Shown here in pieces: positions 1,904-49,070 of a stretch of DNA of 64,000 nt; the stretch's first letter is position 1, and the number at the start of each line of letters is the position of its first letter. The stretch comes from an uncultured Ruminococcus sp. GTDB taxonomy: Bacteria; Bacillota; Clostridia; Oscillospirales; Ruminococcaceae. The notes beneath the pieces are model-generated. The model was not told the DNA's origin. It saw nothing but the letters and a program-made list of their open reading frames with translations, and ran no database searches. The position numbers were made by a program, and so were the translations under genes. Location of the stretch: contig UQDR01000006.1 in assembly GCA_900539835.1 (NCBI GenBank), positions 34,255 through 98,254 on the forward strand, read 5' to 3'.

Positions 1904-1980
<77 letters not shown>

Positions 1981-2143
1981 ATATGCTCAATTTCTGAGTG
2001 CTTATTAATTATATCACCTTTTCTTTCGATTGTCAATAGATTTTCGTAAAAAATTTGATATTTTTTAATTACTAATTTCGACAATGTTTTTTTGACATAA
2101 TGTACAAAAATTTTGTCTGATGTTACAAAATTTATTATTTGTC

Positions 2144-46061: not shown

Positions 46062-46253
46062 ATGGAAATCATTTTGTTAAACGGAAAGACGATAGAGATC
46101 AACAGCAAAGAAGAACTTTACAAACATTTTGACAACTGCCGATATCCTGTCTCCGATGCTGTTAATGCACGGAGCGAGGGAATAATCAATGAAGATGAGT
46201 ACTATGAAACAATGAGAAGCGTTTTTAAGAGAGGGGATAGGAATGACCATTAA
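46062..46253 (+). CDS. hypothetical protein
   Basis: 63 aa. Confidence 0.35.
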   Translation: MEIILLNGKTIEINSKEELYKHFDNCRYPVSDAVNARSEGIINEDEYYETMRSVFKRGDRNDH

Positions 46254-46692
46254 AGAGTATTTAAGTCAGCTGACTGATATAAGGTTGAGGATTGAGGCAA
46301 TAGAACGTTCAATTGAAAAGTGCTATTCAAATGCAGAAAAAACAACATCTACGACATCGGAAGTACCGAATCATACTTTGGGTACGACTTCAAACAAGGT
46401 TGAGGAGAATGTGCTGAAAGTAGTTGAATACAAACAACAACTTGAATCACTTGAAAATCAATTTGAAGAATTTGCATTTCGTGCTACTTGTGAGATTAAT
46501 AAGATACAAGACAATGTGCTTGTTGCATTACTAATAAATAAATATGTATGCGGATTAACATGGGAAGAAGTTTCGGAAATAATTGATAAAAATCTTGATT
46601 ATACAAAAAAGGAGTTACATACTAAAGCATTGAAAGAGTTTGAAAAAATGAATCCCAATTATCCCTCGAAATCCCCTTGTATTCCTGCTTAA
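46243..46692 (+). CDS. putative late-gene transcriptional activator (ArpU/RinA-like, sigma region-4-like HTH)
   Basis: C-terminal VLVALLINKYVCGLTWEEVSEI..KKELHTKALKEFEK resembles a sigma-70 region 4 HTH. It sits just upstream of the packaging module. Confidence 0.5.
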   Translation: MTIKEYLSQLTDIRLRIEAIERSIEKCYSNAEKTTSTTSEVPNHTLGTTSNKVEENVLKVVEYKQQLESLENQFEEFAFRATCEINKIQDNVLVALLINKYVCGLTWEEVSEIIDKNLDYTKKELHTKALKEFEKMNPNYPSKSPCIPA

Positions 46693-46739
46693 ATAATTTA
46701 TAATGATAATTGGAGATAGTGTAAAAGCTATTCCGATGT

Positions 46740-46960
46740 GATCTTCATTTTTTTGTCATTGGGTCTCAACGGGGCGAAAGCTCCGTATGTCAGTATAGCA
46801 TAAGCAGTGCGGCTCTGTCCGGGTGCGTATGGGTGCAAATCCCATTGCTGACAACATAGCTGTTTACCAGCAGTATAAAGATAGGTCGCATGATTTCCAC
46901 CTTTGAGTGCGATTTAAAAGGTGCAGGTTTGAGGTTATCCTTGCTCATAAGAAAACCTCA
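46740..46960 (+). ncRNA. candidate structured RNA of unknown class
   Basis: Several clean hairpins are present: GGGGC-GAAA-GCTCC with a GNRA loop, ATGGG-TGCAAAT-CCCAT, and TTGAGGTT..AACCTCAA. There is no ORF of 60 aa or more. Confidence 0.35.
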
Positions 46961-46964
46961 ATAC

Positions 46965-47050
46965 GTCTCGTTAGCTTAATAGGTAAAAGCGTTGTTCGAA
47001 CACTACAACAAGATTTGGGTATGCAGGTTCGACTCCTGCACGAGACACCA
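46965..47050 (+). tRNA. tRNA-like gene with aberrant anticodon/variable region (86 nt including CCA)
   Basis: 7-bp acceptor GTCTCGT/ACGAGAC, D arm GCTT/AAGC, T arm GCAGG-TTCGACT-CCTGC, discriminator A and CCA. However, there are 31 nt between the D and T arms, with TTGTT..(T)ACAA around a 9-10 nt loop. Confidence 0.45.
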
Positions 47051-47093
47051 CCAGTGAGGACTTCCCATCCTCCTCAATAATATTTTTGGCATT

Positions 47094-47120
47094 CAGCAGT
47101 CGTTAGGCTGCTGTTTTGCT
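47094..47120 (+). terminator. rho-independent terminator
   Basis: CAGCAG-TCGTTAGG-CTGCTG followed by TTTTGCT. Confidence 0.65.
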
Positions 47121-47193
47121 ACTATTAAAATTTATTTGTACATATTGAAAATTCTAAATGTTTGTGGTATCATAAAATAGGGGTTGAGTTAAG

Positions 47194-47607
47194 ATGCCAT
47201 TTGAGGAAGTAAGATATACTAATTTTGATCATTTAATTATTCCAAAAGATTATGCTGAAGCAAGTGGATGCGGAGAAAAGCACTGGCTTTATGATACAGC
47301 AGCTAAAGAAATTGTTGGTTTATTCAAATATCCCAAGAAAAATACTTATGAGCACATAGCTGAACACATGGCATCAAGTCTAGGAAATTATATTGGCATT
47401 CCATGTGCAAAAATTGATTTAGGAACGTATTATAATAGACAGGGGTGCTTAAGCTATCTTGTTTATGATAAGAAAAGTCATCCCGAATTAGAACTTATTG
47501 AGGGTGTTAATCTATTAAAAATTCAATATCCAAATTATGATGAAAATAGATTGATTGATATAAGCACTGGAGAAAGATATTCCAGACTTTTTTCAAGATT
47601 TAAATAG
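47194..47607 (+). CDS. HipA-C-like protein fragment (kinase N-lobe-like region)
   Basis: 137 aa. The stretch GEKHWLY..IVGLFKYP..EHIAEHMASSLGNYIGIP..YLVYD..LIEGVNLL aligns by motif with the first half of the HipA_C domain (QxKF..KFP..NE..MxLAxxxGI..RFDR..EDFCQL). AT-rich. Confidence 0.4.
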   Translation: MPFEEVRYTNFDHLIIPKDYAEASGCGEKHWLYDTAAKEIVGLFKYPKKNTYEHIAEHMASSLGNYIGIPCAKIDLGTYYNRQGCLSYLVYDKKSHPELELIEGVNLLKIQYPNYDENRLIDISTGERYSRLFSRFK

Positions 47608-47608
47608 A

Positions 47609-47881
47609 ATGAAAGCCCTTGTAAACAGTAAGTCAAGATCATGTATAAAAATAAATAATAATAAGAATACTCGTCATGTAGATGTCATAAAATATGCTAT
47701 ACAAAAAAATTATATACCGATAGATCTAATAATGTTTATTGTTGAGATTGTTAGTCATAGTATAGATGATTTAATAAATAGCTATTCAAAGGTTATTTCA
47801 GACCAAAGGCAACAACTTATATCATATTTTCTAAAATCAAAGATAGCATTATTAAGATCCATTTGTGAAAGGAGGATATAA
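47609..47881 (+). CDS. small protein with a degenerate HipA catalytic-loop-like segment
   Basis: 90 aa. IVEIVSHSIDDLINSYS resembles vFNvligNtDDHlKNfS with the His and Lys lost. Separated from the upstream ORF by TAG-A-ATG and overlaps the next ORF in TAATG. Confidence 0.3.
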   Translation: MKALVNSKSRSCIKINNNKNTRHVDVIKYAIQKNYIPIDLIMFIVEIVSHSIDDLINSYSKVISDQRQQLISYFLKSKIALLRSICERRI

Positions 47882-48558
47882 TGAATACTCTAGAAATTTA
47901 TTGGCAAAATCCTGAAACCCGAGAAAGAAGCCTTGTAGGCTTTTTAGAAGACAACGAAAATGAATATATATTTAAATATTCACAAAACGTTATTCAAGGA
48001 AAGGTAACAGGATTTAAACCTATTTATCCTTTTTTAAATTATGAAAAAGAATATAGATCTATGTCCATGTTTTCAAATTTTTTAAATAGAATACCCAGTC
48101 CTAAAAGAAATGATATAAATGATATATTAAAAAAATATGGGTTAGAAGAATATGATGAGTTTAATTTATTAGTTAAAAGTGGAGGACGTACACCAGCAGA
48201 CAACTTAGAATTTATATCACCGATTGATACAACAGCAAATAAAATTATAAGAAGTTTTTATATTGCTGGTGTATCACATGGTGAATTTTGCTTAGGTCAA
48301 TGTGATGATTCTTGTTTATCAGAAGTTACTGATTATGAAATTAAACTTTGTAAAGAACCGGATAATATACATGATCAATATGCTATTAAATTGTTAGTTG
48401 AAGGCAAAAAAATTGGTTACATTCCAAAATACTATTCTAAAAGTGTAACAGAGTTGATTAATAATAATTATAAGATAAATATATTTATTGAAAATATAAA
48501 TAATGATGAAAAAAATTGTAGAGAATGTGTTAAAGTAATACTAAAAGCAGAAAAATAA
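47881..48558 (+). CDS. HipA-N-subdomain-1-like (HipS-like) plus C-terminal HIRAN domain fusion protein
   Basis: The N-terminus FSNFLNRIPSPK..ILKKYGL..DEFNLLVKSGGRTPADNLEF follows the HipA_N pattern F.NLLPEG..R..GL..D.F.LL...G.DcaGAl.F. The C-terminus IAGVSHGEF..EPDNIHDQYAIKLL..GKKIGYIPKYY matches the HIRAN fold signature. Confidence 0.5.
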   Translation: MNTLEIYWQNPETRERSLVGFLEDNENEYIFKYSQNVIQGKVTGFKPIYPFLNYEKEYRSMSMFSNFLNRIPSPKRNDINDILKKYGLEEYDEFNLLVKSGGRTPADNLEFISPIDTTANKIIRSFYIAGVSHGEFCLGQCDDSCLSEVTDYEIKLCKEPDNIHDQYAIKLLVEGKKIGYIPKYYSKSVTELINNNYKINIFIENINNDEKNCRECVKVILKAEK

Positions 48559-48570
48559 ATATTAAACAAA

Positions 48571-48597
48571 ACAGCCCCCCGGGGCTGTTTTTGTTTT
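48571..48597 (+). terminator. rho-independent terminator
   Basis: ACAGCCCC-CC-GGGGCTGT followed by TTTTGTTTT. Confidence 0.8.
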
Positions 48598-48620
48598 GCA
48601 TAAAAAGAGAGGTGGTGAAA

Positions 48621-49070
48621 GTGGCAAAAGGAAAATATCAAAGATGGCTTGAGCCTGAGGGTCTGCAATTACTTGAAGGGTGGGCAAGAGATGGACTGAC
48701 AGATGAGCAGATAGCTGACAATATGGGGATAAGCACTTCTACTTTATACGATTGGAAAAATAAATATTCGGAGATTTCGGAGGCCCTAAAAAAAGGTAAA
48801 GAAATTGTAGATATCCAAGTTGAGAATGCTTTATTAAAACGTGCTCTTGGATACAGCTACAGTGAAGTGACAACCGAAAAAGACGGAAATAAAATCAAGC
48901 AAAAAATCACCAAAAAACAAGTTATTCCCGATACTACAGCACAAATCTTTTGGCTGAAAAACAGACGTCCTGATAAATGGAGAGATAAACCACCGATTGA
49001 TGATTCTAATGCCACAGAAGCAGAACTTCCGAAACTGTTTGATACACTTGAAAGTGAGGATATCGAATGA
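48621..49070 (+). CDS. terS: terminase small subunit
   Basis: HTH LTDEQIADNMGISTSTLYDW. GTG start behind RBS GAGAGGTGGTG; the ORF track shows a TTG start at 48591. Confidence 0.8.
   Translation: MAKGKYQRWLEPEGLQLLEGWARDGLTDEQIADNMGISTSTLYDWKNKYSEISEALKKGKEIVDIQVENALLKRALGYSYSEVTTEKDGNKIKQKITKKQVIPDTTAQIFWLKNRRPDKWRDKPPIDDSNATEAELPKLFDTLESEDIE

Follow-up and report, generated by a model that had tools for sequence, protein, structure and literature searches.

The gap that separates the gene of a putative phage late regulator (46243-46692) from the next gene (47194) in the DNA of an uncultured Ruminococcus sp. (contig UQDR01000006.1, positions 34,255 to 98,254; this whole stretch of 64,000 nucleotides (nt) is called the window here, and positions are those within it) raises the question of why a segment with no apparent protein product carries a tRNA-like gene among RNA hairpins. 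We lean towards the explanation that this 430-bp gap is the 5' leader of the late (packaging/structural) operon of a prophage, built as a tRNA-punctuated array of small RNAs that would be cut by RNase P and RNase Z. This explanation draws on the anatomy of the gap (Table 1), its conservation pattern, the architecture of a large family of phage leaders and the covariation of the minihelices in that family, all of which were read directly. An earlier note, made from the sequence of the window, had recognised the lack of coding content, a GNRA-capped stem, the tRNA-like gene and a terminator; it included neither the second cloverleaf, nor the putative late promoter, nor the membership in the leader family.

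Table 1. Positions of the features of the gap and of the sequence just upstream of it, counted within the window
Feature	Position	Strand	Basis or remark
ATCCC/ATTCC direct repeats, four copies about 10 bp apart	46652-46685	+	3' end of the regulator gene; read from the sequence
-10 box TATAAT of the putative late promoter P1	46699-46704	+	conserved in all variants
5' terminal stem-loop GGAGAUAG-UGUAAAAG-CUAUUCC	46712-46734	+	z = -3.5 against shuffles
U-rich variable spacer	46735-46768	+	pairwise diversity 0.44 among 12 variants
GNRA hairpin (ACGGGGC-GAAA-GCUCCGU, 46769-46786) with 'AU' junction; family signature ACGGRGCGNAAGCUCCGUAU	46769-46788	+	20-mer pattern matches
Degenerate tRNA-like cloverleaf 1, 68 nt	46788-46855	+	ARAGORN at 80% threshold; RNAalifold cloverleaf
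Cargo RNA between the two tRNA-like elements, 109 nt	46856-46964	+	consensus fold
tRNA-like element 2, 86 nt	46965-47050	+	ARAGORN 'tRNA-Val(aac)'; Rfam tRNA
Small hairpin GAGGA-CUUCCCA-UCCUC	47056-47072	+	loop varies, stem kept
Conserved AU-rich box CUCAAUAAUAUUUUUGGCAUU	47072-47093	+	counterpart in the larger family: CUCCUUAUAAUAUUUU
Intrinsic terminator (predicted)	47094-47120	+	8-bp stem (47094-47113) with 4-nt loop, then UUUUGC

No open reading frame (ORF) of 60 amino acids (aa) or more lies between 46692 and 47194. The two short ORFs that overlap the gap, a minus-strand one of 52 aa and a plus-strand one of 57 aa, were treated as spurious, as was a 78-aa minus-strand ORF; the 52-aa and 78-aa ORFs served as handles for fetching homologous DNA. 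The fold of the 443-nt stretch was better than that of 100 out of 100 shuffled sequences (z = -3.1). The multiple perfect hairpins described earlier are true of the outer hairpins only, because the central 177 nt by themselves have ordinary stability compared with shuffles (z = -1.1). The segment is bounded by a promoter-like -10 box and a predicted terminator and is a conserved structured RNA, in agreement with the earlier suggestion that it is transcribed as a discrete unit. In a scan of 46500-47300 against Rfam 15 (E<=10), tRNA was the sole match, and no GOLLD, ROOL, T-box, riboswitch or ribozyme was found. Neither ARAGORN nor Rfam 15 gave a transfer-messenger RNA (tmRNA), the related leaders and their cargo modules matched no Rfam family, and BLAST searches of 50,697 phage records, made with the region and with the surrounding 24 kb, gave no match. 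Two other ideas were dropped: a tmRNA-like pairing of the 5' GGGUCUC with the 3' end, as the 5' sequence is not conserved, and a cos/pac site, because the same block adjoins unrelated terminase types.

The 86-nt tRNA-like gene (element 2) was called at the same place by ARAGORN and by the Rfam tRNA model RF00005 (48.9 bits, gathering score 29; E=2e-7 for the whole window), two of the checks that had been proposed for it. Its body is canonical, with a 7-bp acceptor stem, a 4-bp D stem and a 5-bp T stem with the loop UUCGACU, and its 3' end consists of the discriminator A73 and an encoded CCA, followed by a second CCA. The anticodon region, which had been judged about 10 nt too long, is aligned by Rfam with a 10-nt insert in the anticodon loop; it can be read as a 5-bp stem (46991-46995/47005-47009) with a 9-nt loop (46996-47004), or 7 nt with a 31/39 mismatch, followed by an unstructured variable region of 13 nt (47010-47022). 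We compared six distinct variants of element 2 (alignment A3), with identity down to 80%. All 21 pairs of the RF00005 cloverleaf are kept in the six variants, and the sole change in a stem is a compensatory one, from G:C to A:U, in the pair closing the anticodon stem. Variable columns are 2 of 42 in stems and 15 of 45 in loops (p = 0.0009). Because the 21 pairs are kept, the one change is compensatory and changes are excluded from stems, element 2 is under selection and is not a decaying pseudogene.

Diversity in element 2 is 0 in the T loop, 0.02 in the stems, 0.19 in the anticodon loop and 0.13 in the variable region, compared with 0.44 in the spacer and 0.48 in the terminator loop. The anticodon arm, lying between these extremes, is therefore relaxed and not hypervariable. 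Positions 31 and 39 are never complementary in the Watson-Crick sense (U.U or C.U), which leaves a loop of 9 nt; at position 33, five of the six variants have G or A, and only L142 has U. The 'anticodon' is AAC, GAC or GUC on the same body with A73, in near-identical copies, and the variable region has 12-14 nt with no conserved stem. The 7-nt loop with U33 and a closed 31-39 pair, the fixed anticodon and the standard variable region of a tRNA are thus missing, and element 2, in which two defining features fail, is not a standard tRNA. The features of an RNase P substrate are present: element 2 ends in ACCA and has C at -1 (U in L001). A role in codon-usage compensation was dropped, as the use of GUY (Val) and GAY (Asp) codons is the same in host genes and phage late genes. 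Kissing-loop dimerisation through a palindrome of the anticodon loop (GTTCGAAC against GTCCGGAC) was also dropped, as the alleles CCGGUC and CCAGUC break the palindrome, and a search of the phage loci for a sequence complementary to the anticodon loop gave nothing consistent.

An exact 28-mer of the 3' half of the tRNA-like gene matched one IMG/VR contig, L001. This contig and the window have 90% identity over the block as a whole (about 46710 to 47120), rising to 97-98% in the core. In the flanks of the block in L001, the regulator and small-terminase proteins have no BLASTP similarity to those of the window, and terS lies directly after the block. Other relatives were obtained by exact look-up of the regulator protein, by look-up of the spurious ORFs that gene callers put on the minus strand of the RNA and through proteins homologous to the 63-aa neighbour, among them one with an annotation from a Ruminococcus sp. 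metagenome-assembled genome. These look-ups gave 12 distinct close variants (alignment A2) and several structural variants, which differ in what follows the GNRA hairpin: in L146, cloverleaf 1 with the cargo, then a bona fide tRNA-Met (66 bits) and then a pseudoknot module; in L142, the tRNA-like element directly; in L145 and L147, a 36-nt hairpin ending in UCCA; and in L148 and L143, this 36-nt hairpin and the pseudoknot module. L144 has no cargo and keeps the order of promoter, hairpin with a U run and first late gene. Scans of genome and JGI metagenome collections for a pattern of two T loops returned genuine tRNA arrays only, and two loci matched by an 18-mer of the T arm (L002 and L003) were false leads.

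The 20-mer ACGGRGCGNAAGCTCCGTAT matched 81 IMG/VR stretches, and, including the loci fetched earlier, the family comprises 106 loci, of which 81 are distinct, on phage contigs mostly from gut metagenomes. In every locus, the base after 'UAU' begins a tRNA-type acceptor stem, and the element in this slot ranges from a 36-nt minihelix to a complete tRNA. Most loci have a 32-33-nt stem-loop followed by N-CCA, L164 and L195 have a 'top half' (acceptor stem and T arm), and L227 has a tRNA-Ile(TAT). All six outer-stem pairs of the minihelices covary, and the CCA is invariant in the 24 distinct sequences compared (alignment A4); U stands at -1 and mostly G at +1. The long leaders are arrays of two to three elements each, in the order minihelix or top half, cargo, minihelix, cargo, minihelix, and the cargo modules recur across them in different combinations; in shuffled leaders, one minihelix-NCCA element was found in 11 of 375 trials. 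Behind the payload, 75 of the 81 distinct leaders have a TTTTG[CT] run. Every leader that we read has the AU-rich box and a hairpin before this run, with the first late gene 25-30 nt further on and no promoter between.

If the gap is a processed late leader, transcription would start at about G46712, from a promoter right after the regulator gene and behind the regulator's own repeats, and the RNA would contain, in order, the 5' stem-loop, the spacer, the GNRA hairpin and, 2 nt later, cloverleaf 1. The 109-nt cargo would come next and would be closed by the tRNA-derived element ending in ACCA, and the AU-rich box and the terminator with its short U tract would end the leader, further late genes needing read-through. 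Host RNase P would cut at the 5' side of each tRNA-like element. In Firmicutes, RNase Z cleaves after elements that lack CCA, and it would do so here after cloverleaf 1. The predicted products are a 5' RNA of about 77 nt (46712-46788), the 109-nt cargo and the 86-nt tRNA-like RNA. In element 2, the part mainly needed would be the top half (acceptor stem, T arm and NCCA), which RNase P recognises, and such a need matches the element's pattern of constraint; relaxation of the anticodon arm could then explain why the loop has 9 nt, why a purine stands at 33 and why the 'anticodon' changes. The rule 'GNRA hairpin, UAU, acceptor stem ... NCCA' and the punctuated arrays of the family fit RNase P cutting at tRNA-like 5' ends. 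The use of the promoter, the binding of the regulator, the cleavages, the read-through and any function of the cargo are what we infer from this anatomy.

The regulator encoded upstream of the block has 149 aa, belongs to phrog_36 and is Ltr-like, and the gene upstream of the leader in L151 is likewise of phrog_36. Ltr-type regulators are small proteins whose genes lie directly upstream of the late promoter that they activate, from which one late transcript is made (PMC13123087). The corresponding arrangement was found here, with a small regulator gene directly upstream and allele-specific repeats to which binding is predicted, and we infer that P1 is an Ltr-type late promoter whose transcripts begin with the RNA block. 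Regulator alleles of the related loci (L001, L129-L138, L142-L149) have 125-163 aa, belong to phrog_36 and are often without detectable mutual similarity, and each has two to four direct repeats of its own, phased at about 10 bp, just upstream of a shared -10 box. The ATCCC/ATTCC repeats are putative binding sites for the regulator allele of the window, and with other alleles a different repeat occupies the same place (AATGGCGGA twice, ATGTCCG four times, ATGTAACAA four times, TTGTCCGTT twice, and others). These pairs of allele and repeat are a ready set of predicted protein/operator specificity pairs. In all variants, TGTTATAAT or TGTTAAAAT is found at a constant distance from the 5' hairpin, with the -10 box 7 nt upstream of that hairpin, and the start of P1 is predicted at G46712. 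The stretch 46699-46711 contains two tandem -10-like hexamers, TATAAT-GATAAT, which are TAAAAT-TATAAT or TATAAT-TTAAAC elsewhere and are reminiscent of the sigma-dependent pause elements used by Q-type antiterminators.

The 5' stem-loop survives changes in its 3' strand in L136 and L138. Its core GATAGTRTAAAAGCTAT recurs in unrelated phage contigs (L016, L017, L035, L053, L068, L099 and about 20 other IMG/VR loci), in which the hairpin has a covarying outer stem and then a T run; in marine contigs of T4-like appearance it is preceded by the same AATTTAAACT, then a TATAAATA box. This hairpin may be a shared promoter/stem-loop cassette. Many other matches to GATAGTRTAAAAGCTAT are coding (peptide DSVKAI) and are due to chance. 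The tetraloop of the GNRA hairpin is GAAA, GUAA or GGAA in the family, and UUUC in one locus, and a change from G.U to A-U was seen in its stem. In L146 (1139-1158), the tetraloop and its closing pairs, GCGAAAGC, are exchanged for the exact reverse complement, GCUUUCGC, which resembles an inverted hairpin tip. A boxA-like UUGUUCUUUAACGG stands directly before the GNRA hairpin in the spacers of L136, L137, L131, L138 and L146 (1130-1145 in the last). It matches 10 of the 13 positions of the E. coli rrn boxA, UGCUCUUUAACAA. Followed by the GNRA hairpin, such a motif would resemble a boxA/boxB pair; the window and the commonest type of leader have it in weak form or not at all.

Cloverleaf 1 has an 8-bp acceptor stem, a T arm AUGGG-UGCAAAU-CCCAU, a short D arm and a 6-nt 'anticodon' loop, and it starts at the exact point at which minihelices and full tRNAs start in other leaders. 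The cargo behind it has hairpins at 46859-46874, 46882-46916 and 46929-46961, and the modelled fold allows a possible pseudoknot between CACCUUU of the hairpin 46882-46916 and AAAGGUG at 46917-46923. In L146, cloverleaf 1 and the cargo (46780-46961 of the window) are identical, with 0 differences in 182 nt, and its 63-aa neighbour protein is 75% identical; in L001, there are five differences in about 195 nt of the cloverleaf 1/cargo alignment, and the neighbouring 63-aa gene is 85% identical. Besides the 109-nt RNA of the window, the exchangeable cargoes include at least three other types of module elsewhere. One of them (L146 1411-1500; L148 1848-1940; L143) has an H-type pseudoknot, ACGGUCU/AGACCGU, in which the loop GUAAUUUC pairs with GAAAUUAC, and a compensatory change was found in it (GUAAUUUC/GAAAUUAC in L146 versus GUAUUUUC/GAAAAUAC in L148). 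Two further recurrent modules, one in L160 and L164 and the other in L197 and L212, have no Rfam match.

At the 3' end of the leader, the small hairpin is missing from leaders of the L142 and L148 types. The terminator is located where the earlier note had placed it and has the features of an intrinsic terminator, with G-C in five of its eight stem pairs and a U tract of only 4 nt; diversity is 0.01 in its stem versus 0.48 in its loop. A scan of 1.5 kb gave two terminator-like sites against 0.7 expected. In L130, L007 and L135, terS lies about 30 nt past the terminator with no promoter between, and in L151 the first late gene (HNH) lies about 25 nt past the hairpin, the downstream genes being HNH, portal and head. 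What lies downstream of the terminator varies: terS, HNH, unrelated inserts, an island with HipA-like/HIRAN genes in the window, or TIR and SLATT genes in L142. Because of this variation between loci, the island is an independent, unrelated moron. It is AT-rich and self-contained (47145-48595, GC 22-30%), with its own promoter (extended -10, 47145-47173) and its own strong terminator (48573-48595), and the RNA block occurs without it in at least 10 loci (L001, L007, L129-L131, L133-L138).

The first ORF of the island (137 aa) matches the N-terminal part of PHROG 8728 and the second (90 aa) its C-terminal part, and since both match the one PHROG they may represent a split or frameshifted gene; ORF 3 has a weak HipA_N match and a HIRAN domain. 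In L142 (4429-5549), a ThsB-type TIR gene and a SLATT-domain gene lie on the opposite strand, right after the leader terminator, and several phages thus have defence-type inserts at the site that follows the leader. Elsewhere in the window (1904-2055, minus strand), Rfam matched the Staphylococcus small RNA S774 (53.5 bits, gathering score 48). This match overlaps the first 20 nt at the 5' end of a tRNA-Met and the promoter region upstream of it, and probably reflects a tRNA leader included in the family model.

Several points weigh against the explanation of the gap as a leader cut by RNase P and RNase Z. The promoter and the cleavage sites are themselves predictions, cloverleaf 1 has no CCA, and pre-tRNAs do not usually have a stable hairpin as close as 2 nt before the RNase P site. 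The extreme sequence conservation of the GNRA hairpin is not accounted for by processing. The full tRNAs of L227 and L146 indicate that the slot can hold decoding tRNAs, so that a translational role is possible, and the compensatory change in the anticodon stem hints at residual constraint there. The cargo has no covariation, because the segment is invariant, and its fold is no better than that of shuffled sequences. Moreover, L129-L138 were fetched by exact identity to the 52-aa spurious ORF within 46790-46948, and their invariance there is therefore by construction; the invariance of the cargo is partly an ascertainment effect, the unbiased loci being L001 and L146 only.

An unusual or suppressor tRNA was among the possibilities raised by the earlier note. 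Under this alternative, the 86-nt gene would be a working decoding tRNA (Val GAC/AAC, or Asp GUC in some alleles) for late translation, and the upstream RNA would be an unrelated co-transcribed small RNA. A Val anticodon with A34 is not known to be normal in bacteria. The canonical body with its encoded CCA, the canonical tRNA-Ile and tRNA-Met in the same slot, the U33 and the normal-looking AUGACAC loop of L142 and the change that preserves the anticodon stem agree with decoding. However, the purine at 33 in five of six variants, the effectively 9-nt loop with 31/39 never Watson-Crick, the 13-nt variable region without a stem, the alternation between Val and Asp on an otherwise identical A73 body and the equal GUY/GAY codon use in host and phage late genes, which leaves no codon-usage rationale, make such a tRNA possible but rather unlikely. 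The aberrant anticodon arm, the degenerate cloverleaf nearby and the span from full tRNA to minihelix in other leaders could also suggest a functionless pseudo-tRNA decaying from a phage tRNA cluster, a view that we find very improbable, since stems are 100% paired in six variants with identity down to 80%, changes are kept out of them, the T loop is invariant and the flanking neutral sequence has diverged to 0.44. Two further proposals of the earlier note, that the tRNA-like sequence served the AT-rich island as a site of integration or serves its HipA-like/HIRAN genes as an RNA component, rest on an adjacency seen in this window only; with the block present without the island in the loci named above, no tRNA 3'-end direct repeat at the far side of the island (46600-48750 was searched for such a flanking repeat, as expected of an attachment site), and the island placed past the terminator under its own promoter and terminator, both are hardly credible.

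Two alternatives concern what the RNA would do during infection. The tRNA-like RNA, perhaps with the CCA-ending minihelices, could serve counter-defence: where host enzymes cleave or modify the anticodon loops or CCA ends of tRNAs during infection, these RNAs would be nuclease-resistant replacements or would act as decoys. For phage tRNAs whose anticodon loops are altered, escape from anticodon nucleases and retron effectors has been proposed or shown (PMC10264068, PMC11555353), the differences between the alleles of element 2 concentrate in the anticodon loop, and the adjacent insertion site gathers defence-type genes (HipA-like/HIRAN in the window, TIR plus SLATT in L142). Nevertheless, the diversity of the anticodon loop (0.19) is below that of its neutral neighbours (0.44-0.48) and looks like relaxed rather than diversifying selection, most members of the family have a minihelix only, without an anticodon arm, and no cognate nuclease was identified; as the whole explanation, we give counter-defence a low probability. 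A similarly low one applies to the idea that the 5' hairpin, the spacer and the GNRA hairpin form a nut- or put-like site through which RNA polymerase becomes resistant to terminators, with the tRNA-like parts as passengers. Terminators without a promoter behind them precede late genes in the window (47094-47120, 48573-48595) and likewise in L130 and L144, no other element of the family is as strongly conserved as the GNRA hairpin, and some spacers have UGUUCUUUAAC just before this hairpin, resembling the E. coli rrn boxA UGCUCUUUAACAA. Of a lambda-type nut site, the GNRA hairpin is present. On the other side, the boxA-like motif is found in some spacers only and is missing from the window and the commonest type of leader, no N-like protein was identified, plain leakiness may suffice because the U tracts are short, and the invariant NCCA and the covarying minihelix are left unexplained. 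We keep a nut-like antitermination role of the universal 5' part, and likewise a counter-defence role of the tRNA-like RNA or cargo, as live alternatives or additions to the processed leader.

A wider and more speculative proposal, which we put forward tentatively and hold to be doubtful as a whole, is that the processed leader belongs to an undescribed late-leader RNA platform of gut Clostridia phages, in which a conserved GNRA hairpin is followed by an array whose tRNA mimics are cut signals for RNase P and RNase Z; the cuts would release exchangeable cargo small RNAs for host takeover or counter-defence, and the GNRA hairpin may couple processing to read-through of the terminator. If the reading of the gap as a processed leader is correct, an unannotated and fairly widespread RNA architecture exists in temperate phages, mostly of gut-type metagenomes (the 106 loci), odd non-decoding look-alikes of tRNA are kept as processing signals and not as adaptors, and a set of exchangeable phage small RNAs is made together with the late genes. 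The leaders also raise the question of how Ltr-type late operons pass terminators between the promoter and the first gene. As judged by Rfam 15 and the literature searched, the placement in an Ltr-type late leader, the GNRA signature, the gradation between full tRNA and minihelix and the presence of exchangeable cargoes are new.

The components of the leader have counterparts in known systems. As in lambda PR'-6S RNA-tR' and at Ltr/RinA late promoters (PMC13123087), a regulator gene lies directly upstream of the late promoter, and a short leader RNA ends at a terminator that late expression must pass; Ltr proteins are described as activators, not antiterminators (PMC13123087), and for the lambda and Ltr leaders no tRNA-like or GNRA element is described. 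The phage tRNAs with non-standard anticodon loops mentioned above (PMC10264068, PMC11555353) are expressed during infection and are similar to element 2 in being phage tRNA genes with such loops. They have a 7-nt loop and a fixed anticodon and still decode, whereas in element 2 the loop has 9 nt (or a mismatch together with a purine at 33), the variable region is long and unstructured, and the anticodon depends on the allele.

Hairpins made of an acceptor stem, a T stem-loop and NCCA are given as classical minimal RNase P substrates (McClain, Guerrier-Takada and Altman 1987, cited in PMC11143913), and the precursor of the C4 antisense RNA of phages P1 and P7 is given as a substrate of the same enzyme (Hartmann 1995, cited in PMC11143913). 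The leader elements are like these in that a mimic of the acceptor stem on a T hairpin with NCCA lies within a longer phage transcript, with U at -1 and mostly G at +1. They are unlike them in being repeated punctuation in a late leader, in always having the conserved GNRA hairpin before them and in being replaceable by full tRNAs, and their cleavage is predicted. Viral precedents of tRNA-punctuated processing are the tRNA-miRNA units of the herpesvirus MHV68 and the tRNA cluster of phage T4, with its stable species 1 and 2 RNAs. Mitochondrial tRNA punctuation and MALAT1-mascRNA (PMC8128908) are also similar, in that tRNA-like folds, without a need for decoding, let RNase P and RNase Z free the neighbouring RNAs. 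Unlike these tRNA-punctuated units, the leaders described here have cargo modules without a known RNA match, belong to bacterial temperate phages and carry the array in the 5' leader of a late mRNA, in which minihelices replace the cloverleaves in most members.

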